From: an uncultured Elusimicrobia bacterium
GTDB lineage: Bacteria; Elusimicrobiota; Elusimicrobia; UBA1565; UBA9628
NCBI GenBank assembly: GCA_964358485.1
Contig: CAYHPY010000001.1
Location: 17,382 to 81,381 of the forward strand
Direction of reading: 5' to 3'
DNA length: 64,000 nt
A program made the translations under genes and the position numbers. Under the pieces are notes generated by a model, which was not told where the DNA came from, did no database searches, and saw only the letters and a program-made list of their open reading frames with translations. This document shows, one piece after another, positions 19,018 through 45,756 of the stretch (position 1 is the first letter of the stretch; every line of letters begins with the position of its first letter).

Positions 19018-19779
19018 TTAGGTTCGTTTGAAGGCGAAGGGGCCGAAGGCCTGCATGACCGGCATGAGCTCCACGCGGTTGATGTTGACGTGGCGCGGGA
19101 GGGTGGCGGCCCAGAAGATGGCCTCGGCCACGTCCTCGGCGTTCAAGGGCTTGAGCCCGGCGTAGGGCTGGGCGGCCTTGGCCGCGTCGCCCTTGAAGCG
19201 CACCAGGGAAAATTCCGTCTCGGCCAGGCCCGCGGCGATGTCGGTGACCCGGACGTTGGCGCCGAGCAGGTCCGCCCGCAGGTTGAGGGCGAATTGCTTG
19301 ACGAAGGCCTTGGTGGCCCCGTAGGCGTTGCCCCCCGGGTACGGGTGGTCGGCGGCAACCGAACCTAAAAGGATGACATGGCCCTCGTCGCGCTCGACCA
19401 TGCCGGGCAGGAAGGTCCGGACCGTGTAGAGCATGCCGGTGATATTGGTGGCCACCATCTCCTCCCAATCCTCCAGGCGGGCCTTGGGGGCGGGTTCCAG
19501 GCCCAGGGCCAGCCCGGCGCTGGCGATGATGATGTTCACGCCGTCAAAGGGGGGCTTGAGGCTCCTGGCCAGAGCTTCCACGGCCTTGCGGTCGCGGACG
19601 TCCAGAACCGCGGTCAGGCAGGCCTTGCCGAGTTCTTTCTTAAGGGCGGCCAGGCGGTCGGCCCGGCGTCCGGTCGCGATCACCCGGGCGCCGGCCTTGG
19701 CAAATCTGCGGCAGGCGGCGGCGCCGAAGCCCGAGGTGGCTCCGGTCACGAGGACGGTCAGGGTCTTGGGATCAGTCAT
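19018..19779 (-). CDS. SDR-family NAD(P)-dependent oxidoreductase.
   Basis: TGATSGFG Rossmann motif, the NIIIASAG motif, and the YxxxK catalytic motif (YGATKAF). Confidence 0.8.
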   Translation of the reverse strand: MTDPKTLTVLVTGATSGFGAAACRRFAKAGARVIATGRRADRLAALKKELGKACLTAVLDVRDRKAVEALARSLKPPFDGVNIIIASAGLALGLEPAPKARLEDWEEMVATNITGMLYTVRTFLPGMVERDEGHVILLGSVAADHPYPGGNAYGATKAFVKQFALNLRADLLGANVRVTDIAAGLAETEFSLVRFKGDAAKAAQPYAGLKPLNAEDVAEAIFWAATLPRHVNINRVELMPVMQAFGPFAFKRT

Positions 19780-19825
19780 GGAAGTCAAGCAAGTCAAGCA
19801 TGTCAACCACCGGCACCGTTAGCCG

Positions 19826-20872
19826 TTAGGTGTTTTTGAGGATGTCCTTGCCGACGGATTTGGCGATGGTGCCCAGGTCGCGCGCCCAGTCGGGGATGAG
19901 GGGGCGGGTTCCTTGGTAGTTGGACACCTCGTAGCGCTCGAGCTCGTCGGAAATTTGGAGGGCGAGCTTGAGGGCCTCGATGCCGTGCTCGCCGCTGGGC
20001 CAGGGCTTGCGGTTGTGGCGGACGCAGTCCAAAAAGTGGATGTGCTCGCTTTTGAGGGGCTCGGTCTGGGAGAGCTTGGGGCGGATGATCTCGACGTCCC
20101 GGAGGCTCTTGATCACCGGGGATTTGCGCTTGTAGATCTTGAGCGCGGTGTTGGCGTAGTCGAGCGAAATGTAGGAGTCCTTTTGGAAGACCCGGAGCTT
20201 GCGGCATTTCTCCAGGGAGATGCGGCTGGCGGTCAGGTCGGCGATGCAGCCCGTCTTGAAGCGGACGCGGACGTTGGCGATGTCCTCGTGGGGCGAAAGC
20301 AGATTGGCCCCCACGGCCTCCAGGCTTTCGACCTCCGAGCCGACCAAGGTCAGCAGGATGTCCAGGTCGTGGATCATGAGGTCCAGGACGACGCCGATGT
20401 GCGACATCCGGGGATCGTAGGGCCCCAGGCGCTCCACGGTGATAAATCGCGGGTTGCGGATGTGGGGGATGGCCTCCAGGACCGCGGGGTTGAAGCGTTC
20501 CACGTGACCAACCTGCAAAACCGCGCCCCGGGCCTCGGCCATGGCCAGGAGCTGTTTGGCCTCCTCCACCGAGGCGGCCAGGGGTTTTTCGATGAGGCAG
20601 TGGATGCCCTTGTCCAGGGCGGCCAGGCCGACCTCCAGGTGCAGGGGCGTGGGCACCGCGATCACCAGCGCGTCGATCTTGCCCAGGATTTCCTTGTAGT
20701 CCCGGCAGGCGATGGTGTTGGCCTTCCAGGCGGCGAGCTGGGCCCGCCAGATATTGGTGTCGCAGACCGCGACCAGTTCCGCGTCGGCGATCTTTCCCAG
20801 GATGCGGGCGTGGTGGGCGCCGATCTTGCCGGCCCCGACGACCGCGATCTTGATGCGGGACGGTTTGCTCAT
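19826..20872 (-). CDS. Gfo/Idh/MocA-family oxidoreductase in the lipid A cluster.
   Basis: N-terminal Rossmann fold IKIAVVGAGKIGAHHAR and the conserved EKP motif (CLIEKPLA). The start overlaps the lpxI stop (ATGA). Confidence 0.75.
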   Translation of the reverse strand: MSKPSRIKIAVVGAGKIGAHHARILGKIADAELVAVCDTNIWRAQLAAWKANTIACRDYKEILGKIDALVIAVPTPLHLEVGLAALDKGIHCLIEKPLAASVEEAKQLLAMAEARGAVLQVGHVERFNPAVLEAIPHIRNPRFITVERLGPYDPRMSHIGVVLDLMIHDLDILLTLVGSEVESLEAVGANLLSPHEDIANVRVRFKTGCIADLTASRISLEKCRKLRVFQKDSYISLDYANTALKIYKRKSPVIKSLRDVEIIRPKLSQTEPLKSEHIHFLDCVRHNRKPWPSGEHGIEALKLALQISDELERYEVSNYQGTRPLIPDWARDLGTIAKSVGKDILKNT

Positions 20873-21621
20873 GGGAGGTCCTTGAGGCCGATGATGGCCA
20901 TGCCCTGGGCGTCGGCCTGCCGGAGGAACTCGTCCTTGTTGAAGATCATGGTTTTTCCGGCTTCGAGGGCTAAAGCCGAGACTTTAGTCTCGGCAAACAC
21001 TTTTAAGGAGTCCATGCCAAGGACGGGGATGTCGAAACGGAGGTCTTGATTCGGTTTCGCCACTTTAACGACTACCAGGAACGGATCTTTGCCGAAGGAA
21101 CGGGCTAACGAGCTTGCCCGCCTGACGGCGGAATCAGTCCCCTCCATGGCTTCCACGGCGATGACCGCGCCTTCCCGGACCACCACGGTCTGTCCGATGT
21201 CGAACCCCGCCACGGCCTTGGCGGCCCGCCAGCCGAGGCGGATGTCGGCCAGCTCCGCGGCGTCGGGGGCGCGCTTGGTGAGGGGGCCTTCCTGGGCCAT
21301 CAAGTGAGAAAGATAGGTGACCGAGGACAGGAGTTCAATTCCGTCCTTGGCGAACTCGTCGGCGACGGCCTTGAGGATGGTGTCGGTGCGCTTGTCGGCG
21401 AGTTTGGCCAGGATCTTGACCGTTCGCAGGTCCGGGATGATTCCGCCGAAGACCGAAGCGTGCTGGACCTTGCCGGCCATCACGGCCTGGGCCACCCCGG
21501 CGGCCTTGAAGGCCTGGATGGGCTTGTCGATCTGCCCGAGCTTGAAGTAGTGGACCTTGGACACCAGCTTTTCCAGGGCCTGGTCGGTGACCCCGGTCAG
21601 GGCCACGGCCACCACCTCCAC
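20869..21621 (-). CDS. lpxI: UDP-2,3-diacylglucosamine hydrolase LpxI (DUF1009). The ORF-track start is GTG at 21621, but the true start is probably near 21690-21702.
   Basis: DIGQTVVVREGAVIAVEAMEGTDSAVRR and RFDIPVLGMDSL resemble the LpxI core. The conserved N-terminal motif IVGLIAGSGSFPLLFAEEARRAG is encoded in-frame upstream of the GTG, at 21622-21696. Confidence 0.75.
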   Translation of the reverse strand: MEVVAVALTGVTDQALEKLVSKVHYFKLGQIDKPIQAFKAAGVAQAVMAGKVQHASVFGGIIPDLRTVKILAKLADKRTDTILKAVADEFAKDGIELLSSVTYLSHLMAQEGPLTKRAPDAAELADIRLGWRAAKAVAGFDIGQTVVVREGAVIAVEAMEGTDSAVRRASSLARSFGKDPFLVVVKVAKPNQDLRFDIPVLGMDSLKVFAETKVSALALEAGKTMIFNKDEFLRQADAQGMAIIGLKDLP

Positions 21622-28571: not shown

Positions 28572-28608
28572 TAAAAAGGAAGGGCCCCAAGCGGGGCCCT
28601 TCCTTTTT
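28572..28608. terminator. Bidirectional intrinsic terminator ending the inositol operon.
   Basis: AAAAAGGAAGGGCCCC-AAGC-GGGGCCCTTCCTTTTT. A 13-bp GC-rich stem flanked by A5 and T5 runs, located 43 bp past the MIPS stop. Confidence 0.8.
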
Positions 28609-28650
28609 GCCTCTCTTGTTCCGTTTTCTCTATTGTTTTTCTGTATTTTT

Positions 28651-30084
28651 TTATTTCGGCGTCAGCCGTTTCCCCGGCTTGTTGGCCGGTTTCAGGGCTT
28701 TCTTCGGCGGCGTCGCCGGCTCCGGGGTCCCCAACTCCGGGTCGTAGTAATCCAAGCCGGAATGGTCCAGCACTTCCTCGCCCATCAACAGGCGCAGGGT
28801 GTTCTTGAGCTTCAAGTGCTGGATGAACAGGTCGTGCTCGGGCTGAAGGTCCGGGCGGCATTGGGGGGACTTGAAGTAGAAGGACAGCCACTCCTGGATG
28901 CCCTTGAGGCCCGCCCGCTTGGCCAGGTCCATGAAGAGCACCAGGTCCAGGACGATCGGCGCGGCCAGAATCGAGTCCCGGCAGAGGAAGTTGATCTTGA
29001 CCTGCATGGGGTACCCCAGCCAGCCCGCGATGTCGATGTTGTCCCAGCCTTCCTTGGCGTCGCCGCGGGGGGGGTAATAGTCGATGCGGACCTTGTGGTG
29101 GTACTTGCCGTAGAGCTCCGGATACAGGGCGGGCTCCAGGATGGTGTCCAACACCGACATCTTGCTGAGTTCCTTGGTTTTGAAGGAGCCCGGGTCGTCG
29201 AGGACCTCGCCGTCCCGGTTGCCCAAAATGTTCGTCGAGTACCAGCCGCGCAGGGCCAGCATCCGGGCCTTGAGCATGGGGGCGATGGTGGTCTTCATCA
29301 GAGTCTGGCCGGTCTTGAAGTCCTTGCCGCCGATGGGGGCGCCGGTCTTTTCGGCCAATTCGACCAGGGCCGGGACGTCGCCGCTCAAGTTGGGGGCTCC
29401 GTTGGCGTAGGGGATGCCCTGGGAGACCGCGGCGTAGGCGTAGATCATGGATGGGGGGATGTCCGGGGAGTCGGCTTTCATCGCCGCTTCCAGGCCCGCC
29501 AGGGACTCGTGGGCCGGGGAGTCCTTGGGCAGGACTTCCGTGGACCCGCACCAGACCATGACCAAGCGGTCCACGCCGGTCCGCTTTTTAAAGCTTTGGA
29601 TGTCGGCGATCACCTGCTGGGCCAGCTCCCAGCGCGTGGCTTTTTTCTTGGCGTTGGTGGCCTTGAGGTTCTTGATGTAGGCCGGATCAAAGACCGCCGT
29701 CATGGGCTTGATCTGCTCGAGCGCCGCCTTGACCGGCTCGATCTGGGTCCGTTCCAGCACGCCGCACTTGAGCGCCGCTTCCCACATGTTGTCGGGGAAC
29801 AGGTCCCAGCCCCCGAACACCAGGTCCTTGAGGCCCGCCAAGGGCACGAAATCCTTGATGAGGGGGTGTCGGTCCTCATAGCGCTTGCCCAGGCGGATGG
29901 TCTGCAGTTGGGTGACCGAGCCGATGGGCGTGCCCAGGCCGCGCCGGCAGAGCTCGACGCCGGCGATGAAGGTGCTGGTGACGGCGCCCATGCCGGGAAG
30001 CAGGACTCCGAGTTTTCCGCGCGCGGGAAGAATCCGTTGGGGTTTTGCGCCCGAGCCGCCGTTTCCGGTTTTCATGATTTTCAA
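28651..30084 (-). CDS. myo-inositol-1-phosphate synthase family protein (inositol-3-phosphate synthase) with a Lys/Pro-rich C-terminal tail.
   Basis: The Rossmann N-terminus (GVLLPGMGAVTSTFIAG) and overall architecture resemble bacterial and archaeal MIPS (Ino1). The C-terminal ~35 aa are TPEPATPPKKALKPANKPGKRLTPK. Confidence 0.65.
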   Translation of the reverse strand: MKIMKTGNGGSGAKPQRILPARGKLGVLLPGMGAVTSTFIAGVELCRRGLGTPIGSVTQLQTIRLGKRYEDRHPLIKDFVPLAGLKDLVFGGWDLFPDNMWEAALKCGVLERTQIEPVKAALEQIKPMTAVFDPAYIKNLKATNAKKKATRWELAQQVIADIQSFKKRTGVDRLVMVWCGSTEVLPKDSPAHESLAGLEAAMKADSPDIPPSMIYAYAAVSQGIPYANGAPNLSGDVPALVELAEKTGAPIGGKDFKTGQTLMKTTIAPMLKARMLALRGWYSTNILGNRDGEVLDDPGSFKTKELSKMSVLDTILEPALYPELYGKYHHKVRIDYYPPRGDAKEGWDNIDIAGWLGYPMQVKINFLCRDSILAAPIVLDLVLFMDLAKRAGLKGIQEWLSFYFKSPQCRPDLQPEHDLFIQHLKLKNTLRLLMGEEVLDHSGLDYYDPELGTPEPATPPKKALKPANKPGKRLTPK

Positions 30085-30088
30085 CCTC

Positions 30089-31243
30089 TCAAGTCGTTTG
30101 GGATTGGCTCACGGCGGAGGACGACTGCCCGCGAGGAAGCAGGGTCACCGCCAGGAACAGGGGGGCGCCGATGGCGCCCGCCCATAAGAAATAGTAGGTC
30201 CAGCCGAAACCGGCCATGACCAGCAAAAGGTAGATGAAATCCCGCTGGGCCAGAAATTGCTCGATTTTTTGGATCAGGGAGTCCGCGTTTTCCTCCGGGT
30301 CGGGCAGGCCCTCGCGGCGCGCGCGCAGGCTGGACAGCTTCCGGGCGTAGGCCCGGGCCGCCGACCCGATGATTCCGGCCCCCGCGGCCAGGCCCAGAAC
30401 CAGGGCGGCGGGGCGGCTTCCGGCCCGGATAAATCCCAGGGCCAGGCAGGCGAACAGCGAGATGTGGACAAGGTTGTCTCCCCAGAAGTCGATGTCGGCG
30501 CCGAAATCGGATTCCTGGAAGCGGATTCGGGCCAGCTCGCCGTCGCAGCCGTCCAGGACGGAGTGCAGCCAGACGAGCGCGGCCCCGACCATTCCCGCCG
30601 CCGCCCCCGGGGCCAGAAAGCAGAAGGTTCCGAGAAGGCCGATGATGGAGCTTAGGACCGTCATTTGATTGGGGCTGACCGGGCGGTCGATGATCGCGCG
30701 GGTGAAGGCCAGGGAGATGTAGCGGTCAAAATTGCGGGCCATGAAGCCGTCCTGGGATTTAAATCCCAGGGATAACAGCCAATCCTGCACCGGGCCTTCG
30801 TCCATCGGCAGTTGGAGCAGGACGGTCGAGCCGTCCGGGAGCGGCTGTTTGCGAAACGCGGCGGCATCCTCGGTCCGGAAGGGGATCACCTGGATCACCG
30901 AGACGTCGGAGGCGTCGTGGAGGGAGACATGGACCGGGTAGCCGGCGCCGGCGACGTAGCGCAGGGTTTCCTCACGGATGAAATAGTCCCCGGAGATGGC
31001 CAGGTAGGGGGGCTCGAAGCTCAGTTCCTCATCGCCCCGGCGCGCGGCCCAATTGACCTCGAGGCCCGCGGGCGGGCGCAAGGCGGCGAGGCGTTCCTCC
31101 GAGGGCCGCCGGCCCGCGATCCAGACCCTTTTGAGCCCGGCGCGCTTGAGGGTGTGGAGCTGGCGCTCCAGGACCGAGAGTCCGGCCGTCCGCTCGAAGG
31201 GCAGCTTCTCCCGGTTGACCCAGATGACCGCGTTTTCGATCAT
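30089..31243 (-). CDS. CDP-alcohol phosphatidyltransferase with an N-terminal degenerate nucleotidyltransferase-like domain (DIPPS or PIP-synthase-like).
   Basis: CDP-OH phosphotransferase signature DGCDGELAR(x8)G(x3)D... within a six-TM C-terminal half. The soluble N-terminal half (MIENAVIWVNRE…) is NTP-transferase-like but lacks the G-x-G-x-R loop. The start ATG overlaps the upstream stop (ATGA). Confidence 0.7.
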   Translation of the reverse strand: MIENAVIWVNREKLPFERTAGLSVLERQLHTLKRAGLKRVWIAGRRPSEERLAALRPPAGLEVNWAARRGDEELSFEPPYLAISGDYFIREETLRYVAGAGYPVHVSLHDASDVSVIQVIPFRTEDAAAFRKQPLPDGSTVLLQLPMDEGPVQDWLLSLGFKSQDGFMARNFDRYISLAFTRAIIDRPVSPNQMTVLSSIIGLLGTFCFLAPGAAAGMVGAALVWLHSVLDGCDGELARIRFQESDFGADIDFWGDNLVHISLFACLALGFIRAGSRPAALVLGLAAGAGIIGSAARAYARKLSSLRARREGLPDPEENADSLIQKIEQFLAQRDFIYLLLVMAGFGWTYYFLWAGAIGAPLFLAVTLLPRGQSSSAVSQSQTT

Positions 31244-32259
31244 CGCAGGGCCGCCACCGCCGGACGGCTCCGGGTCGCCGGGGCGTAGATCTTGCGAAGG
31301 GCCGAAACGCAAAAACGAGCTTCCTTCAAGTTCTCGAAACGCCTGCGGGGCTGGGAAAGTTCGGCGTGAAAATCCGCCAGCATGGCGGCCAGCCACTCCG
31401 GGTGGGCCGAGCCCGCGGAGATTTTTTCCGGGAAGTCGAACCGCTCTTGCCGGCCGTCCCGCCGGAGGATGAGATGGTCGTCCCGGAGCTCCAGGACTCC
31501 CTTGCGCCCCTCGATGAGGCCCCCATTGGAGCGCTCGGCGGCGCGCCAAGTCAGCCGGAGCAGGGCCGAGGCGGAGGGAAACTTCAGCAGGACCGTGGCC
31601 TCCTCCTCCACGGCGTCGGGCCCGGGCCGGCGAAGATCGGCGGAAATTCCGACGGGGTCCTCGCCGATCAGGCGGAAGATCTGGTAGAGGGCATGCCAGC
31701 CGTGGTCGACCGCGATGCCCCCTCCGGAGAGCGCGGCTTGGGCGCGCCAGGAGCCCGGGTTGGCCTGTCCGGCGGGCTGGGTGCGCAGGGTGTGGAGCTC
31801 GACGTGGGAGATTTTCCCCAAGGCGCCGCCTTGGACGAGCTCGGCGGCCTTGAGCCAGAGCGGGGAGAACGCCCAGTTGTGGACGGTGAAGACCGTTTTG
31901 CCCCGGCGCCGGGCCGAGGCCTCGATTTTCTCCAAGTCGGGGAGTCCGAGGGCCAGGGGTTTTTCGCAGAGCACGTGAAGGCCGCGGCTGAGCGCCTGGA
32001 GGACCAGGGGGGCGTGGGAGGAGGGAGGGGTGGCGATGACGACGAAATCCAGGGCGGACTCGGAACGGAAAAGGGAAGCCCCGTCGGGATAGAAACGAGC
32101 CTTGGGGAGAAGAATGCGGGCCCGGTCCAAACGGGAGGCAACGGAATCGGCAACGGAATCCAAACGGAAATGGACATTCCCGGCAAAGCCGGGAACGTGG
32201 GCCATCTCCACCACCTGCCCAAAGCCGATGAGGCCGCCGCGCCAGATTCTGTCAGCCAT
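31240..32259 (-). CDS. Gfo/Idh/MocA-family oxidoreductase, candidate inositol or inosose dehydrogenase.
   Basis: Rossmann fold GLIGFGQV… and the EKP motif (LCEKPLA). The family includes IolG myo-inositol 2-dehydrogenase. Overlaps the next gene at both ends. Confidence 0.7.
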   Translation of the reverse strand: MADRIWRGGLIGFGQVVEMAHVPGFAGNVHFRLDSVADSVASRLDRARILLPKARFYPDGASLFRSESALDFVVIATPPSSHAPLVLQALSRGLHVLCEKPLALGLPDLEKIEASARRRGKTVFTVHNWAFSPLWLKAAELVQGGALGKISHVELHTLRTQPAGQANPGSWRAQAALSGGGIAVDHGWHALYQIFRLIGEDPVGISADLRRPGPDAVEEEATVLLKFPSASALLRLTWRAAERSNGGLIEGRKGVLELRDDHLILRRDGRQERFDFPEKISAGSAHPEWLAAMLADFHAELSQPRRRFENLKEARFCVSALRKIYAPATRSRPAVAALR

Positions 32260-33586
32260 GCCGCTTGTAGACCGCCATTAGGGATTCTTCCAGGATGTCG
32301 GCCCCGCGCATCGCTTCATCATGCGTGATGACCAGCGGGGGGTTGATCCGCAGGGAGGCGTTATAGGCCATGGTGACCAATCCTCGGGACAGCGCGGTCT
32401 CGAAGATTTCCCGGCAGATCGGCGCGGGCAGGGGCTCCTTGGTCTTGGGGTTCTTGACCAGTTCGACGCCGATGAGCAGCCCTTTGCCGCGGACGTCGCC
32501 GATCCAGGGAAGGCGGCCCGCCATGGCCTGCAGGCGCTTGAGAAGCGCGGCGCCGACCTTGCGGGAATTCTCGACCAGTTTTTCGGAGAGGATGATCGAC
32601 AGGGCCGCGTCGCAGGCCGCCGAGGCCAGGGGATTGCCGCCGTAGCTCGACGAGGACCCCGAGGGGGCGGCCCAGGGCAGGGAGCTGGCGGTCTCGGTGG
32701 AGGCGATGACGCCCGACACCGGAAAGCCCCCGGCGATGCCCTTGCCGACCGTCATGATGTCGGGAACGACCCCGTCGTGCTCGCAGGCAAACATGGCCCC
32801 GGTCCGGCCGAAGCCCGTGATCATCTCGTCGGCGATCAGCAGGGCCTCCTGCTCGCGGCAAAGGTCCTTGAGGCTTTTTAGAAATCCCGCCGGAGGGATG
32901 ACGTTTCCCGCCGTCCCTTGAATCGGCTCGACGATGATCGCGGCCAGGGCCCCGGAGGTCGCGCGGCGCAGGGTTTGCCGGAGGAAATCCAGGCAGTGGC
33001 CCGCGCAGTCATGCTCGCCGGAGGCTCCGAAGGGGCAGCGGTAGGGATTGGGATAAGGGGAGAGGTAAACCCCGGGCATGAGCGGCCCCAGGCCGTGCTT
33101 GAAGGCGTCGCCCAGCAGGCCCAGCACGCCGCCCGTCTTGCCGTGGAAGCCTCCCCAGAAGGAGACGACCTCGAATTTCTTGGTCCGGCTCTTGGCCAGG
33201 CGCAGGGCCGCCTCGACGGCTTCGGCCCCGGAGGAATAAAGCTGAATCCGGTTCAGGTCCCCGGGGGTGACCTTTGCCAGGTTCTTGACGAAGGAAAGCC
33301 GGGCCTTGGTCGTGAAGCTTCCCACCGTCAAGCGCGCGGCCTGCTCGGCCAAGCGCCGGGCGTACTCGGGGTGGCCGTGGCCGACTGAGGCCACGCAGAT
33401 GCCCGCCACGAAATCCAGGTACTCGCGCCCGTCCTCATCCTTGAGGACGCAGCCGCGGCCGCTCTCCATGGCCAGTTTGGAGTACAGGGCGATCGATTGC
33501 AGGCCCGGGGCCAGGTAATCCTGTTCCTCCTCGAAGAGGGCCAGGGATTTGGGTCCCGCGGAAAAGGCCGCCGCCGAGCGCTTCAT
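32252..33586 (-). CDS. Class-III (ornithine/GABA-type) PLP-dependent aminotransferase.
   Basis: LIADEMITGFGRTGAMFACEHDGVVPDIMTVGKGIAGGFPVSGV carries the PLP-lysine motif typical of aminotransferase class III. Confidence 0.8.
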   Translation of the reverse strand: MKRSAAAFSAGPKSLALFEEEQDYLAPGLQSIALYSKLAMESGRGCVLKDEDGREYLDFVAGICVASVGHGHPEYARRLAEQAARLTVGSFTTKARLSFVKNLAKVTPGDLNRIQLYSSGAEAVEAALRLAKSRTKKFEVVSFWGGFHGKTGGVLGLLGDAFKHGLGPLMPGVYLSPYPNPYRCPFGASGEHDCAGHCLDFLRQTLRRATSGALAAIIVEPIQGTAGNVIPPAGFLKSLKDLCREQEALLIADEMITGFGRTGAMFACEHDGVVPDIMTVGKGIAGGFPVSGVIASTETASSLPWAAPSGSSSSYGGNPLASAACDAALSIILSEKLVENSRKVGAALLKRLQAMAGRLPWIGDVRGKGLLIGVELVKNPKTKEPLPAPICREIFETALSRGLVTMAYNASLRINPPLVITHDEAMRGADILEESLMAVYKRHG

Positions 33587-34449
33587 CGCGTGTCCGCCAG
33601 TTCCCCGCGGAGCAGGCGCAGGCGGGAGCTCAGCTTCCAGGCGATCTGCCGGCAGGCCTCCCCGCGGACCTTGGCGAAGCTAGGCCAGGAGTTGACGTCG
33701 ATCAAGGTGACGGTTCCCGAGGGGGAGACGATGGCGTCCCCGCCGAAAATCTCCAGGCCCAGGGCCGCCGCGCCCTTGGCGGCCAGCGCCGCCAGGTGGT
33801 CGATGACAAACGGGATTCGTCGGGCAGTTTCCGGATCGTGGTAGAACCAGGTGAACCACTGGCCCGGACCGACGCCGTAGAACTTGATCAGGTCCCCGTC
33901 GAGATGCTGCTGGAGCACCAGATGGGCGATTTCCCGCTGGGCGAAGTCCGCGCGGATCATTTCCGCCTCGGCGGCGTCGCGCGCGAAAACCACGTCGTGG
34001 CTGCAGGTGTTGTGGACGTCGCCGCGTTTGACCCAGAAGCCGGAGGGCGCCTGGAAGGCCGTCGGGGCCAGGGGGCCCGGGATGGAGGCGGGCAGGATCT
34101 GCGTCGGCGGGAAGGTGATGGTCCGGTCCTTCGAGAACGCGTCGACCATCCGGGTCCGGTAGCAGGAGAGGACCGCGTCGGGAGGATTGAGCACCAGCGG
34201 GCCGCCTTGCGCGGGGGACGGCAACGCCTTGAGCCGCATCAGGCGGGAGTAGGACTCGCACATGGGGACGATGAGATCCCAACCGTTGAGGTCCGCGGAG
34301 TCGGCCTCTTCGGGGGTCAGCAGTTCCGTGCGGATGCGCAAGCCGTCCAGCTCGCCCATGACCGCCCGCAGGATCAGGGCGTCGTCATCCTCGCGGGCCG
34401 GCGAGTTGGTCAGCTCCCGGTATATTCCCAACGCCTTCAAGCTTTCCAT
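33583..34449 (-). CDS. ATP-grasp protein, inositol-phosphate kinase (ITPK1)-like.
   Basis: ATP-grasp hallmarks: FWVKRGDVH, LVLQQHLDGDLIKFY and IFGGDAIVSPSGTVTLIDVNSWPSF. The last resembles the ITPK1 DVNxFPG motif. Confidence 0.5.
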   Translation of the reverse strand: MESLKALGIYRELTNSPAREDDDALILRAVMGELDGLRIRTELLTPEEADSADLNGWDLIVPMCESYSRLMRLKALPSPAQGGPLVLNPPDAVLSCYRTRMVDAFSKDRTITFPPTQILPASIPGPLAPTAFQAPSGFWVKRGDVHNTCSHDVVFARDAAEAEMIRADFAQREIAHLVLQQHLDGDLIKFYGVGPGQWFTWFYHDPETARRIPFVIDHLAALAAKGAAALGLEIFGGDAIVSPSGTVTLIDVNSWPSFAKVRGEACRQIAWKLSSRLRLLRGELADTR

Positions 34450-35144
34450 GTCCCCTCCGACTGCTTCAGAAATTCCTCGGCCGCCGCCAAATCCTCGGGG
34501 CGGTCCACGTCGATGGTTTTGCCCAGGTCCACGCCGGCCACGGGGGCGCCCTCCGCGATCAGGCTCCCCAGGTAGGAGCGCAGGTTCGGGTAGGCCGCGG
34601 CCGCCGGCAGGCGGCGGGCCAGTTCCGGGTCCAACCGATAGAGGCCGGCCGTCGCGAATTTTTTCCCCTGGGCGTTTTCGCCCAGGGCCGAGATCCGGCC
34701 ATTTTCGTCGAGGTCGGCCCATAGGGGTTTCTCGTCGTTGATATAACTGCTGACCCCGAGGGCATTTGTATAACGCCCGGGGTCGATCATTCGTTCCAGG
34801 GCGGCGGGGGGCAGGAGGCAATCGACGGTGGAGATGACAAACGGCTCATCGCCCAATTCGGCCAAAGTTCCGGCGACGAGCCGGAAGCTCTCCCAAGACG
34901 ATTTCGTGTCCGCCTTTAAAAAGATAAGTTCCGTACCCCTAAATTCCGTTTCCAGAAATTTTTTCACCGCCGTTCCTCTGCTGTTTATTAGGACCACGAT
35001 CTTTTTCATGCCCGCCGCCAAAAGCCCCCGCACGACCCAGCCGATCAGCGGAACGCCCGCCACCGGGACCAAAGGTTTGGGCAGGCCGGGATGAGCCCCG
35101 GCCAGGCGGACTCCGTCTCCGGCGGCGATGATCCCCGCGTTCAC
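34437..35144 (-). CDS. Sugar-phosphate or inositol-phosphate nucleotidyltransferase (NTP_transferase family). Uses a GTG start.
   Basis: Canonical motif IIAAGDGVRLAGAHPGLPKPLVPVAGVPLIGWVVRGL. The GTG start overlaps the HAD stop (GTGA). Confidence 0.75.
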   Translation of the reverse strand: MNAGIIAAGDGVRLAGAHPGLPKPLVPVAGVPLIGWVVRGLLAAGMKKIVVLINSRGTAVKKFLETEFRGTELIFLKADTKSSWESFRLVAGTLAELGDEPFVISTVDCLLPPAALERMIDPGRYTNALGVSSYINDEKPLWADLDENGRISALGENAQGKKFATAGLYRLDPELARRLPAAAAYPNLRSYLGSLIAEGAPVAGVDLGKTIDVDRPEDLAAAEEFLKQSEGTWKA

Positions 35145-35824
35145 GCCGCCTCCGAGAGCCGGGGCTCCAGCTCCGACAGGGTGGAAATCCTCCACCCCTG
35201 GCGGCAGCAGGAGGGCCCGCCGTTTCGGGCCAGCAGGGCGTGGCGCAGCCCCAGGTTTTCGGCCCCGCGCATGTCCCGCGGGATGGAGTCTCCCACCATC
35301 ACGCAGTCCCCGGGCCGAAGTCCCAGGGCTTCGATGGCGAAGCGGAAAAGGCGGGCATCCGGTTTTTCCACGCCCACCGCGCCGGAATCGGCGACCACGT
35401 CGAACAAATCGCGCAGGCCTTCGGCCGCCAGAACGCTTTCCAGGTTTCCGTAGAAATTGGAGACGATCCCGAGGCGAAAGCGGGCCGCCAAGCGCTCCAG
35501 GACGGGGCGGTTTAGGGCGAAATTCGCCCGGCATTCCTTGAGAAATTCATCCACCACCAGGCGTTCCAGATTCGACTCTCCGCCCCGGCCGCGGCCGAGG
35601 CCTTCCAAGACGCAGCGGACTTGGAGGGAGAGGGTTTCGCGTAGGCCCAGGTTCTTGAGGGGGAAGCGACGCGAGAGATTGTCGTCCGAGGCGTAGAAAG
35701 CCTTGTCGAAGTCGGCCCGGTCCCGGACCACCCCGCTTTCCTTATAGATGCGAAAGAATCGGTCCCCCCAGGCGGCGCCCCGGGAATCGAGGGTTCCTCC
35801 AAAATCGAAAAGAATGGATTTCAT
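35141..35824 (-). CDS. HAD-superfamily phosphatase.
   Basis: Motif I LFDFGGTLD (DxDxT-type), motif III K, and motif IV MVGDSIPRD. It is the first gene of the operon. Confidence 0.75.
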   Translation of the reverse strand: MKSILFDFGGTLDSRGAAWGDRFFRIYKESGVVRDRADFDKAFYASDDNLSRRFPLKNLGLRETLSLQVRCVLEGLGRGRGGESNLERLVVDEFLKECRANFALNRPVLERLAARFRLGIVSNFYGNLESVLAAEGLRDLFDVVADSGAVGVEKPDARLFRFAIEALGLRPGDCVMVGDSIPRDMRGAENLGLRHALLARNGGPSCCRQGWRISTLSELEPRLSEAA

Positions 35825-35901
35825 GGTCGGGGGCAATCGCTGATTTTACCAATCCTGGCGCCGACCGTCCAGTCGCTGTTTGGACGGGAATTTGTCTGGG
35901 C

Positions 35902-41156: not shown

Positions 41157-42506
41157 ATGCTGCCGCTGCTGGTCTGTCTGCTGGTGGCGGCCGGGCCCGC
41201 GTTGTCGGCCGCTTTTCCGGAGCGCGCGCCGGTCCTTCTGCTGCAGGCCGGGGCCGGGGGATTGTTTCTGTGGATGACCGGCCGCGTCGGGGCCGGCTAT
41301 GTTCCCCTGCCCTCCGGGCGCGTCCTGGCTTGGTCGGCGGCCCTGCTCCTGCTAGGCACCCTTTCCGCGCGGCTGAGCCCGCTCTGGTCCCAAACCGCCG
41401 TTTTCTGGCGCCCGATGACGGCCGGCATCCTGATCGTGCTGGCCATGGCCGGCGTCTCCAAGGGCCAACGCGGCTGGATCGACGAATTTTTGAGGGCCTC
41501 GGGCTGGGTCCTGATGGCGGTGGTCTTTTATCAAAGGTTTTCGGAGGGCACGGTCCGGCCGATGGGGCTATTCCTTTCGACGCAAGCCCTCGCGGCGTCG
41601 ATCCTGCTCCTTCTTCCCCTGGCGGTTCAACGGGAGGATTGGATTCTGACCGGGGGCTTATCGCTCGCCCTGTGCTGGAGCGGCGGGCCCGGCGCGTGGC
41701 TCGGCCTGGCCGCGGCCTTGGCCGTCGTTCGGGCCTGCGGGGTGGCGGGGTACTGGAGCGGCCTTGGGATCGGCTTGGTCGGACTGGTCGTCATTTACGG
41801 AAAATTCCAATCTCCGGAGGTGGTCGATCGCTGGCACTGGTGGGTCGCGGCCTGGAAGCTGGCCTGGGCCAAGCCGTGGCTCGGCTGGGGTCCCGGCGGC
41901 TTCGGGTCGGCCTCGGTGGTATTCCTTCATGATGGCTCGCCGGTCTCGGCCGACCCCTGGAACCTTCCATTGAGGCTGGCGGCGGAATACGGCTGGCCCT
42001 TCGCGCTCCTTTGGGGAGCGGGCATCCTTCATTGCCTTCGAATCGGCGGCCCGCATAAGAGCTTCGGCGCGATCGCCGTGCTGGTGCAGTCCTTGTGGGA
42101 GCCGGGGCTGGCGGCTCCGGCAAACTGGTGGCTTTTTTCCTATTTCGCCGGCTCCGCCCTTTCGGAAAGCGCTTACGGCTGGAACGTGGCGGCTCGCTAC
42201 AAGCTGCCCGGTTGCGTTTTCGCCGCGGGTCTGGGTTGGGCGCTGGTTCATGAATTAGGGAGGCCTCCTGCCCTTTCCGCCCCCGAATCCAGACGCGCCG
42301 CCGCGGAACTCGCCGGGGGTTCGGGCGCCGCCGTCCCGAGAGAACGAATCCTGGAGGCCGTCGCCTTCCTCGAGGAGTCCGCCGAGCGGGACCCGTTCGA
42401 CTCCGCGACCCGGGCGCAGCTGCAGCGCCTTTACGGGCGTTTGGGCTTGGAGGATCTCGCCCGGGCCCAGGCCGCCGAGGCCGCGGCGCTTCGGAGGCGC
42501 CCGTGA
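41157..42506 (+). CDS. O-antigen ligase / O-oligosaccharyltransferase (Wzy_C, PglL-like) family membrane protein with a C-terminal TPR-like tail.
   Basis: Polytopic membrane protein. A periplasmic loop region (…ILTGGLSLALCWSGGPGAWLG…) resembles that of Wzy_C/WaaL-family proteins. Starts 10 bp after pilQ. Confidence 0.5.
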   Translation: MLPLLVCLLVAAGPALSAAFPERAPVLLLQAGAGGLFLWMTGRVGAGYVPLPSGRVLAWSAALLLLGTLSARLSPLWSQTAVFWRPMTAGILIVLAMAGVSKGQRGWIDEFLRASGWVLMAVVFYQRFSEGTVRPMGLFLSTQALAASILLLLPLAVQREDWILTGGLSLALCWSGGPGAWLGLAAALAVVRACGVAGYWSGLGIGLVGLVVIYGKFQSPEVVDRWHWWVAAWKLAWAKPWLGWGPGGFGSASVVFLHDGSPVSADPWNLPLRLAAEYGWPFALLWGAGILHCLRIGGPHKSFGAIAVLVQSLWEPGLAAPANWWLFSYFAGSALSESAYGWNVAARYKLPGCVFAAGLGWALVHELGRPPALSAPESRRAAAELAGGSGAAVPRERILEAVAFLEESAERDPFDSATRAQLQRLYGRLGLEDLARAQAAEAAALRRRP

Positions 42507-43771
42507 TCGCCCAATCCACGCGGGCTTGGGGTCTGTTGTCCTTGGCCGGTTGGGCGGCCGCCGTTTCGGCGGCCGGGTTCTCCTCCGGCTGGACGGCCGC
42601 CGGCTTGATCCTGTGGCTTTGGGTCGCGTTGTATCCCTCGGACCTCATCCGGCCCCGAGGCCTGGGGGCGTGGACGCTCTGGGTGTCGTGGGGCGCGTTT
42701 TCGGCCGTTATCGGCCCCGAGCCGCTGCTCGGGGCCGCCCCTGTCTGGGGAAAGGCGACCGGAGTCCTGATTTTTTCGCTGGCCTATTCCTGGTGGGGCC
42801 GTCCCCACCGGCGGGTCTGGCTGTTCGGGGTGTGGGCCGCCGCCGCCGTTTTCGGGACCCGGGGCCTGGTGTTGGGCGCGTGGAACGAGGGGGCCGTGGG
42901 GTTTTTGGCCGCGGCCGCCGGAAGCCTCCTTTTCGTCCGCGCCTCCTCGATTCTGGAGGGGGGCTGGCGGGCCGCGGTTTGGATCCTGCGGATCCTTTTC
43001 GTGCTGACGGTCGCAGCGGGACTGCGCGGTTCTCCCCGCTCCTCGGTGATCGAGGCGTCCGGCCCGGGTTGGAGCGCCGCGCCCTTGGCGTTGGAGCGCC
43101 CGGCCTCCGGCTTCGGTCCGGGCCGGATCGAGGCTGCCCTGAGAAGCGCGGGTTGGGAGGGGTCGGGCCCTTCCCTCTCCGAGTGGGTTTTTTCGTCGGT
43201 CGAGACGGGGCTTCCAGGAGGCCTGCTCCTGCTGATCGCGACGCTTTATGTTCTTCTTCCCCCGGCTTACGGGGACCGTCCGCGGGAATGGGAGCGGCAG
43301 GCTTGCGCCGGCGCGGTGGGCGGATTGGCCGCGGCCTCCCTCTTCCAGGGTCTCTTCGGCCGTCCGGAGTCGGTCCTTCTGTGGTTCACGGCGCTGGCAT
43401 GCGGAGCCCCCGGCGCGGAGGAAGAGGAAACCCGCCCTTTCCGGATTTCCCCGGCCGCGGCTTGGGCGGCGGTGGCGGCCTGCCTGGCGGCGCCCATCCC
43501 CCGCTTGGCCTTGAGCGCGGGCCTGCGTGCCGGAGCCTCGGACTTCGGGCTGGCCGCCGCGGCCTTGGTGTCTCCGTTGGGCCCTGAGGTGCTGGCCCGA
43601 CGCGCCGAGGCGGACTTGTCGTTGCGGCCCCCTCAGGTGGGCCGGGCCTTGGCCCGGTACCGCCGGGCCGCGCGCATTAATCCGGGAGCCGTCGAATTTG
43701 AAAGGCGCGCCGCTGAGATTTCCCGGGTCGTCTCGGAATTGGGCCCCCCCGTTCCCCGGGGGCGGCCGTGA
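42503..43771 (+). CDS. Second O-antigen-ligase-like polytopic membrane protein, paralog of the preceding gene.
   Basis: Similar topology and a similar TPR-like C-terminus. 4-bp overlap with the preceding gene. Confidence 0.4.
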   Translation: MIAQSTRAWGLLSLAGWAAAVSAAGFSSGWTAAGLILWLWVALYPSDLIRPRGLGAWTLWVSWGAFSAVIGPEPLLGAAPVWGKATGVLIFSLAYSWWGRPHRRVWLFGVWAAAAVFGTRGLVLGAWNEGAVGFLAAAAGSLLFVRASSILEGGWRAAVWILRILFVLTVAAGLRGSPRSSVIEASGPGWSAAPLALERPASGFGPGRIEAALRSAGWEGSGPSLSEWVFSSVETGLPGGLLLLIATLYVLLPPAYGDRPREWERQACAGAVGGLAAASLFQGLFGRPESVLLWFTALACGAPGAEEEETRPFRISPAAAWAAVAACLAAPIPRLALSAGLRAGASDFGLAAAALVSPLGPEVLARRAEADLSLRPPQVGRALARYRRAARINPGAVEFERRAAEISRVVSELGPPVPRGRP

Positions 43772-45756
43772 ACCAGGAGGGGCGCGTTCGGACGGCCGGG
43801 TTTTCGCCGGAAGGAGCGGCGGCGGCGATCTTCGCCGTCCTGTTCGCGATCCTGTTTTTTCCGGTCTGGCTTCGGGGCCTGAGTTTTTTTTGGGGGGACC
43901 TGACCTACATCCATCATCCCTGGCGGGCCCTGCCCGCCCAGTTGATCCAATCCGGGCGCGCGCCGCTTTGGAATCCGTACCTCTACTTCGGCATGCCGAT
44001 GGCGGCGCAAATGCAGGGGAGTCTGTATTATCCGGGGACGGTGCCGTTTTTTCTCTTCGGATTTTCGACCGCGACCGCCGTTTTCCAAGCGGCGCATTAC
44101 TGGCTCGCGGCCTGGCTGATGTTCCTCTGGCTCAAGCGCTCCGCGGGATTTTCCGGCGCCGCCTCCCTGGGGGGCGCGGCCCTGTTCGGCCTCTGCGGTT
44201 TCATGTCCAGCCGCCTTCCCTTCCTAAACCATTTGGCGACCCTGAGCCTGCTTCCGGCCCTTCTAATTTTTTTCCGCCGGCCGGCCCTGCTCGGCCTGAC
44301 CTTGGCCATGGCGTTTTTGTGCGGCTATCCGCCTTTTCTGATCGGAGGAGCCGCGGCGGTTTGGGCGACGCTCGCCGCCGCGGGCCACGCGGATTTTTCC
44401 TCGAAACAGGCGTTGGCGGCCGGATTGGCCCGGTGGGCGGGGGCCGCTCTGCTGGCCATGGCCTTGTCGGCTTGTCTTCTTCTTCCCGCCGCGGAGCTGA
44501 CGGCCCTCTGCCGCCGCGCCTCCGGCATAGCCCTGGAAGAGGTTTTGGAATTCGGTTTTCGGCCGGGCGACTTGTTTCAATGGATCGCGCCCTGGCTGGT
44601 TTCGGGAAAGTTCGATCCGGCGGTGGAGTGGTGGAAGGCGGCCTACCTGGGGGTGGCCGGACTTACCGCCGTCGGAGCCGGCTTGGCGGGCTTGCCGCGG
44701 CGGCGGGCCCTCGGCTTCGGCGTCCTCTTGGCCGCGACCTTGCTCCTGATCCTGGGAAATTCTAACCCCCTCTCCTTGGCCGCCTGGACTGACCTTCCGG
44801 GCCTGCGCATGGTCCGCTATCCGGGGAATATGGCCTACCTGGCTCTGCCCGCCCTGGCGCTTCTGGCGGCCCGGGGATTCTCGCGTAAAGGCTGGGGGAT
44901 TCTCGCCTTGGCGGCGGCCGCGGAATTGACTGTTTACGGCCTGGGGACCTCGCCCGCGGCGCCGAGGGAACTTTTTACCTCCGGAGGACCTCTGGTGAGG
45001 CGGCTTCAGAGTGATTTGGGGGGAGCCCGCTACCTGCTGTCGCCCCTGGCTTTGGAGACCCATCAGGGTTCCAACCTCCTGGATTGGAAGCACCGTCTGT
45101 ACGGGCTGACCAACGCTCCCTTCCGGATCGCGGCGGGCGGCAATTTCGGCGAGCCCTTGGTGCCCCGGACGACTTACGACGCCATGGATTTTATTTACCG
45201 CCAGCCTGGGGCCGCCAAGGCCGCGCGCCACCTGTCCTGGGCCGGAATCCGTTTTCTATTGAGCCCCAAGCCGCCCCCGGAAGGGGCGCTCATTCATGAG
45301 GGGAGCGTTCTTTGGGAGGTGGGACGGGTTCCGGGAGAGGTGTCCTTGGCCTACCTATTGACTCCCGAAGCGGGCGAGAGCCTTCCCGCGGGCCTGCCCG
45401 AAGCCGCCCCCCGGCTCGGGCCGGGCCTTGGATTTGAAAGAACCCGGGAAGACCGTTTCGAGGTTCGGGCCCCGGCCGGAGCCGCTCCGGGCTGGGCCTA
45501 TGTGGCCGAGCCCCGGTACCCCGGCTGGAGGACCTTCCTGGAAACCTCCGCCGGAGTTTCCGAGGCGGAAAGCCTTCCGGCCCTTGGGGCGTTTCAACGC
45601 TTCCAGGTTCCCGGGGGGCCCTGGCGGTTGATTTTTCGCTACGAGCCCCCGACTTTCCGCTGGGGCGCGGCGCTGACGGCGGGCGCCCTCTTGGGGCTGG
45701 CGCTATATTGGTATAATTGCGGCCGAAATCGCTCCCGCCTCCAAGATGCGCAATAG
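43768..45756 (+). CDS. YfhO-like GT-C membrane glycosyltransferase candidate, paralog A.
   Basis: N-terminal motif FWGDLTYIHHPWRALPAQLIQSGRAPLWNPYLYFGMPMAAQMQGSLYYP. More than 10 TM helices plus a large C-terminal soluble domain. Confidence 0.45.
   Translation: MNQEGRVRTAGFSPEGAAAAIFAVLFAILFFPVWLRGLSFFWGDLTYIHHPWRALPAQLIQSGRAPLWNPYLYFGMPMAAQMQGSLYYPGTVPFFLFGFSTATAVFQAAHYWLAAWLMFLWLKRSAGFSGAASLGGAALFGLCGFMSSRLPFLNHLATLSLLPALLIFFRRPALLGLTLAMAFLCGYPPFLIGGAAAVWATLAAAGHADFSSKQALAAGLARWAGAALLAMALSACLLLPAAELTALCRRASGIALEEVLEFGFRPGDLFQWIAPWLVSGKFDPAVEWWKAAYLGVAGLTAVGAGLAGLPRRRALGFGVLLAATLLLILGNSNPLSLAAWTDLPGLRMVRYPGNMAYLALPALALLAARGFSRKGWGILALAAAAELTVYGLGTSPAAPRELFTSGGPLVRRLQSDLGGARYLLSPLALETHQGSNLLDWKHRLYGLTNAPFRIAAGGNFGEPLVPRTTYDAMDFIYRQPGAAKAARHLSWAGIRFLLSPKPPPEGALIHEGSVLWEVGRVPGEVSLAYLLTPEAGESLPAGLPEAAPRLGPGLGFERTREDRFEVRAPAGAAPGWAYVAEPRYPGWRTFLETSAGVSEAESLPALGAFQRFQVPGGPWRLIFRYEPPTFRWGAALTAGALLGLALYWYNCGRNRSRLQDAQ

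Follow-up and report, generated by a model that had tools for sequence, protein, structure and literature searches.

Inositol lipids are considered rare in bacteria, and the 'alternative' route to them in gut Bacteroidales has never been worked out. The corresponding cluster of B. (Phocaeicola) vulgatus and Prevotella places an NTP-transferase, a CDP-alcohol phosphatidyltransferase and a HAD hydrolase beside myo-inositol-1-phosphate synthase (MIPS), with a BT_1521-like LPG-synthase gene nearby; this alternative pathway is unconfirmed experimentally, and an ATP-grasp gene is nowhere mentioned in its description (Heaver et al. 2022, PMC9246714). From its locus tags (RS13095, RS13105 and RS13115), we infer that there is room for such a gene between the NTP-transferase and the phosphotransferase. 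A related seven-gene operon was analyzed in a stretch of 64,000 nucleotides from an uncultured Elusimicrobia bacterium (assembly GCA_964358485.1, contig CAYHPY010000001.1, positions 17,382 to 81,381 of the forward strand; the whole stretch is hereafter the window). As in the cluster of the gut Bacteroidales, which often includes a gene of the LPG_synthase_TM family, MIPS, an NTP-transferase (NTP), a CDP-alcohol phosphotransferase (CPT) and a HAD hydrolase (HAD) are encoded together, and an ATP-grasp protein (AGR) belongs to a family found in human-gut loci of the same kind, between the NTP-transferase and the phosphotransferase. Unlike the window, these gut clusters lack the Gfo/Idh/MocA oxidoreductase (GFO) and the class-III aminotransferase (AT3), and their phosphotransferase has a longer membrane domain and no N-terminal soluble domain. 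The window operon is thus the 'alternative' cluster extended by two genes, with the ATP-grasp protein as an unrecognised shared component. The reading preferred here, given a probability of about 0.5, is that the product of the operon is a phospho-cyclitol head group, made along a Kennedy-type, i.e., cytidine diphosphate (CDP)-alcohol, route in which GFO and AT3 form an optional amine module.

Other described systems share parts of this gene set. Among solved structures, CPT is most closely related to IPCT/DIPPS and to AF2299 of Archaeoglobus fulgidus. Both use CDP-alcohol chemistry with a hydrophilic donor, and their phosphotransferase carries an N-terminal cytidylyltransferase-like domain. 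In contrast to the window, where NTP is a separate gene, these systems have no ATP-grasp, GFO or AT3 and make soluble thermoprotectants. The streptidine route runs through myo-inositol 2-dehydrogenase, the scyllo-inosose aminotransferase StsC and scyllo-inosamine kinase, so that a cyclitol hydroxyl is oxidized, transaminated and phosphorylated, as proposed here, with a dehydrogenase of the same superfamily; its aminotransferase is however of the DegT/StsC type, its kinase is not an ATP-grasp enzyme and its genes lie in secondary-metabolite clusters without CDP activation. The initial annotation had drawn this parallel with scyllo-inosamine formation in aminoglycoside pathways, which holds for the chemical logic but not for the enzyme family, AT3 being a class-III enzyme. 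In the NtdC/NtdA/NtdB (kanosamine) and GnnA/GnnB (UDP-GlcNAc3N) systems, an adjacent dehydrogenase and aminotransferase replace a ring hydroxyl by an amine on a sugar that is phosphorylated or activated with a nucleotide, and NtdB is a HAD phosphatase, as the operon has a HAD; they differ from the window in their DegT-type aminotransferases and hexose substrates. The inositol-trisphosphate 5/6-kinases ITPK1 and ITPK4 (PF05770) share the ATP-grasp fold with AGR, and their FG.D ... ID.N..P motifs for magnesium and ATP and the K-x4-H-x4-H segment align with it, whereas AGR falls below the Pfam threshold, is equally far from RimK and PsnB, and the N-terminal substrate-binding lysines of ITPK1 have no counterpart in the alignment.

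Conservation of the seven-gene operon in Elusimicrobiota

AGR, AT3 and GFO, the three genes on which the initial annotation had focused, were confirmed on the minus strand (Table 1) and are, as it had claimed, embedded in an inositol operon, with HAD and NTP upstream and CPT and MIPS downstream. Their adjacency stood as well, but not the order with the oxidoreductase first, since transcription runs HAD, NTP, AGR, AT3, GFO, CPT, MIPS. Start and stop codons of neighbouring genes overlap (HAD/NTP by 4 nucleotides, NTP/AGR by 13, AGR/AT3 by 4, AT3/GFO by 8 and GFO/CPT by 4), and the genes of the seven-gene operon, AGR, AT3 and GFO among them, are translationally coupled.

The arrangement was compared by tblastn with the window proteins in 83 Elusimicrobiota loci, counts being restricted to loci with enough flanking sequence. 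AT3 was present in 72 of 74 loci, GFO in 66 of 67, CPT in 57 of 59 and MIPS in 47 of 51, and all seven genes occurred in identical order in every complete locus (48/48), an arrangement far beyond chance. The operon was almost always flanked by pilM on one side and by bamA-skp-lpxD on the other. Of the species-level genomes, 175 carried AGR, and almost all of these bear the label Elusimicrobia or Elusimicrobiota; a word-indexed protein search returned 1031 close relatives, and among the 120 listed, with about 60% identity, all named ones were Elusimicrobia. The two loci without AT3 (L057 and L060, both from Elusimicrobia metagenome-assembled genomes) had the short arrangement AGR-Usp-dienelactone hydrolase-CPT-MIPS, in which Usp is a universal-stress-like protein and GFO, HAD and NTP are missing as well. 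The genome of L060 additionally has a complete cluster (L040), and the assembly of L057 contains runs of N and repeated segments.

Two cluster types outside Elusimicrobia

An exhaustive profile search retrieved 1013 clusters of AGR relatives (at 50% identity), 287 of them below 1e-30; no Pfam model exists for this family of about 1000 sequence clusters. Architectures outside Elusimicrobia, taken from gene contexts and a metagenome scan analyzed by tblastn, fell into two types. Type I (43 loci; guanine-cytosine (GC) content 0.33-0.74) had the order [LPG_synthase_TM] HAD NTP AGR AT3 GFO CPT MIPS, with GFO in 23/23, CPT in 14/14 and MIPS in 11/14 of the loci with sufficient flank. In low-GC type I lineages the order was rearranged (AGR AT3 CPT GFO ... 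HAD MIPS), the genes still lying inside the cluster. Type II (18 loci, mostly from the human gut) had the order NTP AGR CPT LPG_synthase_TM HAD ... MIPS, and neither AT3 nor GFO was found in any of its 11 loci with long flanks. By Pfam, the human-gut locus L131 encoded NTP, AGR (no Pfam match), CPT, LPG_synthase_TM, HAD, a major facilitator superfamily (MFS) protein, a PfkB kinase on the opposite strand and MIPS. This type II gut cluster corresponds to the one that Heaver et al. described for the 'alternative' inositol-lipid route, and L085 was another AGR cluster without AT3 and GFO.

Particular loci had further features. In L131, the MFS transporter and the opposite-strand PfkB-family sugar kinase occupy positions 13544-15692, between HAD and MIPS, and could serve the uptake and salvage of inositol. 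A soil metagenome contig (L106, GC 0.70) carried both LPGS-HAD-AGR-CPT and LPGS-NTP-AGR-AT3-GFO-CPT-MIPS, which suggests parallel plain and aminated branches in one organism, each with its own AGR, CPT and flippase paralogues. Two low-GC loci (L135 and L143, GC 0.33-0.34) had tandem AGR paralogues ahead of AT3, in the order AGR AGR AT3 CPT GFO ... HAD MIPS.

AGR was also found fused to other proteins of the cluster, as NTP_transf_3-AGR (five of those scanned), HAD-NTP-AGR, AGR-CDP-OH_P_transf and AGR-HAD, and no fusion to AT3 or GFO was present among the fusion proteins found. AGR-HAD fusions of about 512 residues were abundant in gut metagenomes; a related match of 405 residues was annotated as a HAD family hydrolase of Bacteroidaceae, and HAD-CPT fusions came from Prevotella and Paramuribaculum. 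The conserved positions of AGR were the same in types I and II, including R11, R98, K141, R142, H146, D152, R172, H182, K189, D238, D251, N253 and R262, with only G231N and L232V differing, and the active site of NTP likewise showed no consistent difference that followed the presence or absence of the amine module. As AGR occurs without AT3 and GFO, is fused to NTP, HAD and CPT, and keeps its residues in both types, it is a core enzyme of the CDP-cyclitol route and not part of amine tailoring.

The ATP-grasp protein

AGR as a single sequence had no Pfam or NCBIfam match at E<=0.01 and nothing significant in a PDB sequence search. As single-sequence searches gave nothing usable, the family was assigned through a structure model and a family profile. 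The AlphaFold2 model, built with 24 orthologues (pLDDT 89.5), matched ATP-grasp structures in Foldseek with probability 1.0 and TM scores of 0.6-0.68 (about 0.65), and a three-domain ATP-grasp fold was confirmed at the level of the model. The best matches were mixed, comprising ArgX/LysX, Ddl, RimK, maize ITPK1, DcsG and synapsin. Among weak Pfam matches of AGR, the one to PF05770 alone was relevant; it scored 11.2 bits (E 0.27), below the gathering score of 23 bits and over the C-terminal 44 residues only. A profile of 121 diverse relatives retrieved from the PDB PsnB (1e-7), ITPK4 (3e-7), a RimK-like ligase (1e-5) and the Entamoeba and human ITPK1 (about 3.5e-4), and hhalign of the family against human ITPK1 (a sequence identical to PDB 2odt) gave a probability of 81% over 220 columns. 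In this alignment K141/H146/H151 of AGR corresponded to K157/H162/H167 of ITPK1, K189 to K199, and D238/D251/N253 to D281/D295/N297, of which D295 and N297 bind magnesium in the human enzyme. K141, K189, D238, D251, N253 and P256 were invariant across the 121 relatives, and the LIDVNSWPSF motif reads, from the alignment, as the magnesium-binding D-x-N segment. Of the ITPK-like character that the initial annotation had seen in this motif, the fold and the D-x-N alignment were upheld; the sequence resemblance appears real, but marginal to moderate and not confined to ITPK, and a kinase cannot be told from a ligase by homology alone.

The conserved basic residues of AGR (R11, R98, K141, R142, H146, R172, H182, K189 and R262) fit an anionic substrate. 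ATP-grasp ligases have a glycine-rich loop, and the central K-x4-H-x4-H segment of AGR resembles ITPK, not this loop. Fusions of kinases to nucleotidyltransferases are a classic pattern (HldE, Fkp, LicCA). Given the fusions to NTP, the basic residues, the K-x4-H-x4-H segment and a proposed pathway that holds no carboxylate substrate, a kinase role fits AGR better, and the protein probably acts as an ITPK-like kinase that phosphorylates a cyclitol or cyclitol phosphate ahead of CDP activation.

The three genes could instead form one tailoring unit, in which GFO and AT3 make an inosamine and the ATP-grasp enzyme acylates its amine through an amide bond, a role that the initial annotation had entertained. 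Their adjacency and translational coupling are compatible with such a unit, as is a fold common to many carboxylate-amine ligases, with ArgX/LysX, Ddl and RimK among the top Foldseek matches; the Bacteroidales member of the AGR family, moreover, weakly matches RimK and LysX models. The occurrence of AGR in clusters without its supposed partners (18 loci including L131, none of the 11 with long flanks having AT3 or GFO, and L085), its fusions to NTP, HAD and CPT but never to AT3 or GFO, and conserved residues that stay the same in both cluster types apart from G231N and L232V all argue against it. With AGR a core enzyme whose active site does not change, an amide ligase acting on inosamine is very unlikely, and that part of the initial annotation was abandoned.

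The aminotransferase and the oxidoreductase

AT3 is a full-length class-III protein (PF00202, the sole Pfam family at E<=0.01) and not of the DegT/StsC type, as no match to PF01041 was obtained at the same threshold. Its K282 (the lysine binding pyridoxal phosphate (PLP)) and D253 correspond to residues K268 and D239 in the GabT of E. coli (sequence verified against 1sf2), and both residues, together with R413 (the alpha-carboxylate arginine), were kept in at least 95% of 31 orthologues, so that AT3 looks catalytically competent. R141, E211 and Q242 (E. coli GabT numbering) are hallmark residues of the GabT/ArgD type; AT3 has K150, T225 and I256 instead, the first two kept in at least 95% of the 31 orthologues. 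With 35% identity to E. coli GabT and scores below every NCBIfam cut-off (e.g., GabT 297 vs 507, argD 285 vs 410), AT3 did not fall within the housekeeping GabT/ArgD enzymes, a placement that would have counted against the initial annotation. Cluster orthologues of widely differing GC content shared 49-86% identity with the nearer of two references (the AT3 of the window or that of L086), and the best 120 relatives listed were all Elusimicrobia cluster orthologues at 64-74% identity. By sequence, AT3 forms a dedicated orthologue group and is not a GabT/ArgD orthologue. At residues 308-319 it has a serine-rich loop, PSGSSSSYGGNP (SGSSSSYGGNP), where GabT has PGGLGGTYAGNP; this loop, kept in at least 95% of the 31 orthologues, may be a substrate-recognition feature.

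GFO scored 60.6 bits on PF01408 (cut-off 24) and 74.2 bits on PF22725 (cut-off 27). Its Rossmann glycines G8/G12/G14, E99-K100-P101 and D185..H189 were kept in at least 95% of 23 orthologues; the lysine of the EKP motif and the downstream D-x3-H are the catalytic residues of the Gfo/Idh/MocA family, and GFO looks catalytically competent. The assignment to this family made in the initial annotation was retained, but not the affinity to IolG: GFO is no IolG by TIGR04380 (58.1 bits against an equivalog cut-off of 355) and is no closer to inositol dehydrogenases than to many sugar dehydrogenases. Its best solved relatives were an uncharacterised Yersinia protein, glucose-fructose oxidoreductase (GFOR) and aldose-aldose oxidoreductase.

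In every locus examined, GFO and AT3 were found only together and only within MIPS/CDP-alcohol clusters, i.e., as a strictly paired optional module, also in unrelated lineages. Adjacent pairs of a Gfo-type dehydrogenase and an aminotransferase elsewhere (NtdC/NtdA, GnnA/GnnB, StrI/StsC) convert a ring hydroxyl to an amine. From this exclusive pairing across distant lineages, the restriction to inositol clusters and the analogous pairs, the module probably converts the head group from inositol to an amino-inositol (inosamine), which is the best reading of the gene context although unproven. The oxidation and transamination of a cyclitol foreseen by the initial annotation thus stood as the most economical reading (the pair always lying inside the inositol cluster, with GFO in 23/23), inosamine itself being unproven.

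The pair may alternatively act on a non-cyclitol component (an amino-alcohol or amino-sugar acceptor) or run catabolically, from amine through ketone to alcohol, or AT3 may be a racemase or lyase. GFO has no specific kinship to inositol dehydrogenases, the closest solved relatives of AT3 include racemases and epimerases, AT3 reached 294 bits on the PbfA lyase model, and no compensating change was seen in AGR or NTP between cluster types. This is nevertheless distinctly unlikely, given that the pair is confined to MIPS/CDP-alcohol clusters, that the alpha-carboxylate Arg413 and the PLP lysine are kept as in true transaminases, and that inositol is the only polyol that the operon makes.

Two other roles were rejected. 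For a function of GFO and AT3 in GlcN3N-containing lipid A (GnnA/GnnB), a separate GnnA-like gene is present in the lpx cluster and the pair occurs elsewhere with MIPS, not lpx. For a LysW/LysX-type amino-acid biosynthesis, suggested by the ATP-grasp protein and the class-III aminotransferase, LysW, LysZ, LysY and LysK were all missing and the genes stay tied to an inositol context. The separate gene encodes a second Gfo/Idh/MocA oxidoreductase (19826-20872, minus strand) in the lipid A run, between lpxI (20869-21621) and a short-chain dehydrogenase/reductase (19018-19806). Its best match was UDP-GlcNAc 3-dehydrogenase (241 bits, below the cut-off of 450), which hints at GlcN3N-containing lipid A, and it has no kinship to GFO beyond the family level.

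The phosphotransferase and its product

CPT was nearest to AF2299 (2e-21) and IPCT/DIPPS (1e-12), with phosphatidylinositol phosphate (PIP) synthases at 1e-5 or weaker, and is thus closest to enzymes with hydrophilic CDP-alcohol donors. It shares an N-terminal soluble domain and a short membrane domain with both; the soluble domain had no NTP-transferase Pfam match, and against NF041135 (IPCT/DIPPS) CPT scored 73 bits (cut-off 580) over the membrane domain only. A crude hydropathy count of helices was uninformative, and the membrane domain was judged by the length after the CDP-alcohol motif. In the window CPT this motif, DGCDGELAR, stands at residue 231, with about 150 residues following DGxxAR; CPTs of Bacteroidales and low-GC lineages were about 75 residues longer past the motif, and the CPT alignment split by lineage, not by cluster type.

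These features bring in a soluble phosphodiester of the di-myo-inositol-phosphate (DIP) type instead of a lipid: CDP-inositol would be coupled to a cyclitol phosphate, HAD would dephosphorylate the product and GFO/AT3 would aminate one ring, giving a net-neutral analogue. MIPS, a cytidylyltransferase, a CDP-alcohol phosphotransferase and a phosphatase are the DIP gene set, a parallel cited by Heaver et al. (PMC9246714), and the domain layout of CPT is that of AF2299 and IPCT/DIPPS. Neither of these enzymes processes lipids, their six-transmembrane architecture going with soluble acceptors, and lipid-acceptor enzymes have additional C-terminal helices (Clarke et al. 2015, PMC4634129). Other evidence points the other way. 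A flippase-like LPG_synthase_TM gene lies inside the cluster in many other lineages (e.g., L086 and L131) and one is found 12 kb away in the window, the Elusimicrobiota operon almost always adjoins bamA-skp-lpxD, and inositol sphingolipids are known from Bacteroidales that carry a related cluster (Heaver et al. 2022, PMC9246714). The carriers, moreover, are groundwater and soil organisms, unlike the (hyper)thermophiles from which DIP-type solutes are known. Flippase-like genes, outer-membrane biogenesis neighbours and Bacteroidales sphingolipids favour a membrane product; a lipid is rated more likely than a DIP-like solute, and the latter reading is considered unlikely.

The LPG_synthase_TM gene of the window (PF03706, 8e-38) occupies 47545-48582 on the plus strand and is followed by a gene for a methyltransferase with a Trm112p domain (48579-49586, plus strand).

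Proposed pathway

In the preferred reading, a phospho-cyclitol head group made by the CDP-alcohol route, MIPS makes inositol phosphate, AGR (most likely an ITPK-like kinase) would supply the cyclitol phosphate, and NTP would activate that phosphate with cytidine triphosphate. NTP matched the archaeal IPCT/DIPPS model NF041135 weakly (7e-09) and is a candidate CTP:cyclitol-phosphate cytidylyltransferase. Two variants can be drawn. HAD may strip the MIPS-derived phosphate before AGR re-phosphorylates the cyclitol, possibly elsewhere on the ring. Alternatively, AGR may phosphorylate inositol 3-phosphate a second time; NTP would activate this new phosphate, and HAD would take off the one from MIPS once transfer is complete, as in the PIP, phosphatidylglycerol phosphate and di-myo-inositol-phosphate phosphate pathways. 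The PfkB family includes inositol kinases, and the PfkB kinase of the gut cluster slightly favours the second variant.

By oxidizing one hydroxyl on the inositol ring, GFO would create a ketone, which AT3 would turn into an amine, yielding an inosamine head group. Candidates for the stage of amination are the free cyclitol, the cyclitol phosphate, the CDP-cyclitol and the finished product; as AGR and NTP are unchanged between cluster types, amination may follow CDP activation or act on the finished head group. CPT would then transfer the phospho-(amino)cyclitol onto an alcohol. This acceptor is probably a membrane lipid, and the result would be a zwitterionic, phosphatidylethanolamine-like lipid derived from inositol. 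Clusters without GFO and AT3 (gut Bacteroidales) would make a plain inositol head group.

Several observations weigh against this pathway. The invariance of AGR and NTP with and without the amine module is also what would be expected if the pair acted on something else, and the substrates of AGR, AT3 and GFO are predictions only. Many sugar dehydrogenases matched GFO better than the solved inositol dehydrogenases, which reached only 1e-9 to 3e-8, so that the sequence of this divergent enzyme gives no sign of cyclitol specificity. The aminocyclitol aminotransferases known so far are DegT/StsC enzymes, a different family. ITPK and the ligases RimK, PsnB and LysX are about equally near to the AGR family, which fails the Pfam ITPK threshold (11 bits vs 23). 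No inosamine lipid was reported in the literature searched. With the short, AF2299-type membrane domain of CPT, tied by Clarke et al. (2015) to soluble acceptors, a lipid product is not assured.

Operon features and genomic neighbourhood

The coordinates of the operon and its putative signals are given in Table 1. The likely start of HAD is an ATG at 35824 (MKSILFDFGGTLD). A hairpin downstream of MIPS is the probable end of the operon and looks like a bidirectional terminator separating it from bamA. GC content of the window was 65%. The operon is flanked upstream by the divergent pilMNOPQ genes and downstream by bamA-skp-lpxD-lpxC-fabZ-lpxA-lpxI. Beyond pilQ, a Wzy_C (O-antigen ligase-like) protein is followed at 42503-47584 (plus strand) by three large open reading frames (422, 662 and 612 residues) without Pfam match; a Wzy_C protein and a protein of about 650 residues, similar to this set, were also present in loci L001 and L003.

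Table 1. Genes and predicted signals of the inositol operon in the window.
Feature	Coordinates	Strand	Evidence and remarks
HAD-IA phosphatase-like hydrolase (HAD)	35141..35836	-	operon gene 1; PF00702 5e-18, PF13419 2e-14
MobA-like nucleotidyltransferase (NTP)	34437..35144	-	about 235 residues, GTG start (VNAGIIAAGDG); PF12804 6e-09
ATP-grasp protein (AGR)	33583..34449	-	288 residues; AlphaFold2 model and Foldseek
LIDVNSWPSF motif, AGR residues 249-258	33676..33705	-	alignments to ITPK1
Class-III PLP aminotransferase (AT3)	32252..33586	-	444 residues; PF00202 2e-103, 346 bits
Gfo/Idh/MocA NAD(P)-dependent oxidoreductase (GFO)	31240..32259	-	339 residues; PF01408 3e-16, PF22725 1e-20
CDP-alcohol phosphotransferase (CPT), N-terminal soluble domain	30089..31243	-	about 384 residues, start MIENAV; PF01066 2e-11
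myo-inositol-1-phosphate synthase (MIPS), last gene of the operon	28651..30084	-	PF07994 4e-97, PF01658 7e-33
Promoter-like TGGACG-17-TAAAAT with TG extension, directly upstream of the HAD start	35843..35871	-	consensus scan, pattern match only
Hairpin between the stop codon of MIPS and the start of bamA, 17-bp perfect stem, T-runs on either strand	28572..28609		terminator scan, pattern match only

Significance for bacterial membrane chemistry

The literature searched held nothing on inositol metabolism in Elusimicrobia, on inosamine head groups or on a bacterial ATP-grasp enzyme in an inositol cluster. With an unannotated ATP-grasp enzyme among its members, the alternative route as proposed has to be redrawn, and in Phocaeicola vulgatus the gene offers a target for a knockout. 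The extended version of the cluster is found in many environmental bacteria, including essentially all Elusimicrobiota with the AGR gene, where the GFO/AT3 pair would convert the anionic head group, inositol, to a zwitterionic amino-cyclitol. Only tentatively can this be extended to a widespread new bacterial head group, phospho-inosamine on glycerolipid or ceramide, made by a CDP-cyclitol Kennedy pathway with an ITPK-like ATP-grasp kinase at the committed activation step, the same kinase being the missing enzyme of the 'alternative' pathway of gut Bacteroidales; so broad a picture is possible rather than probable. If true, amination would extend the known polar head groups of bacterial membranes by a new one and, more speculatively, could explain some of the 'unidentified aminophospholipids' of taxonomic descriptions.

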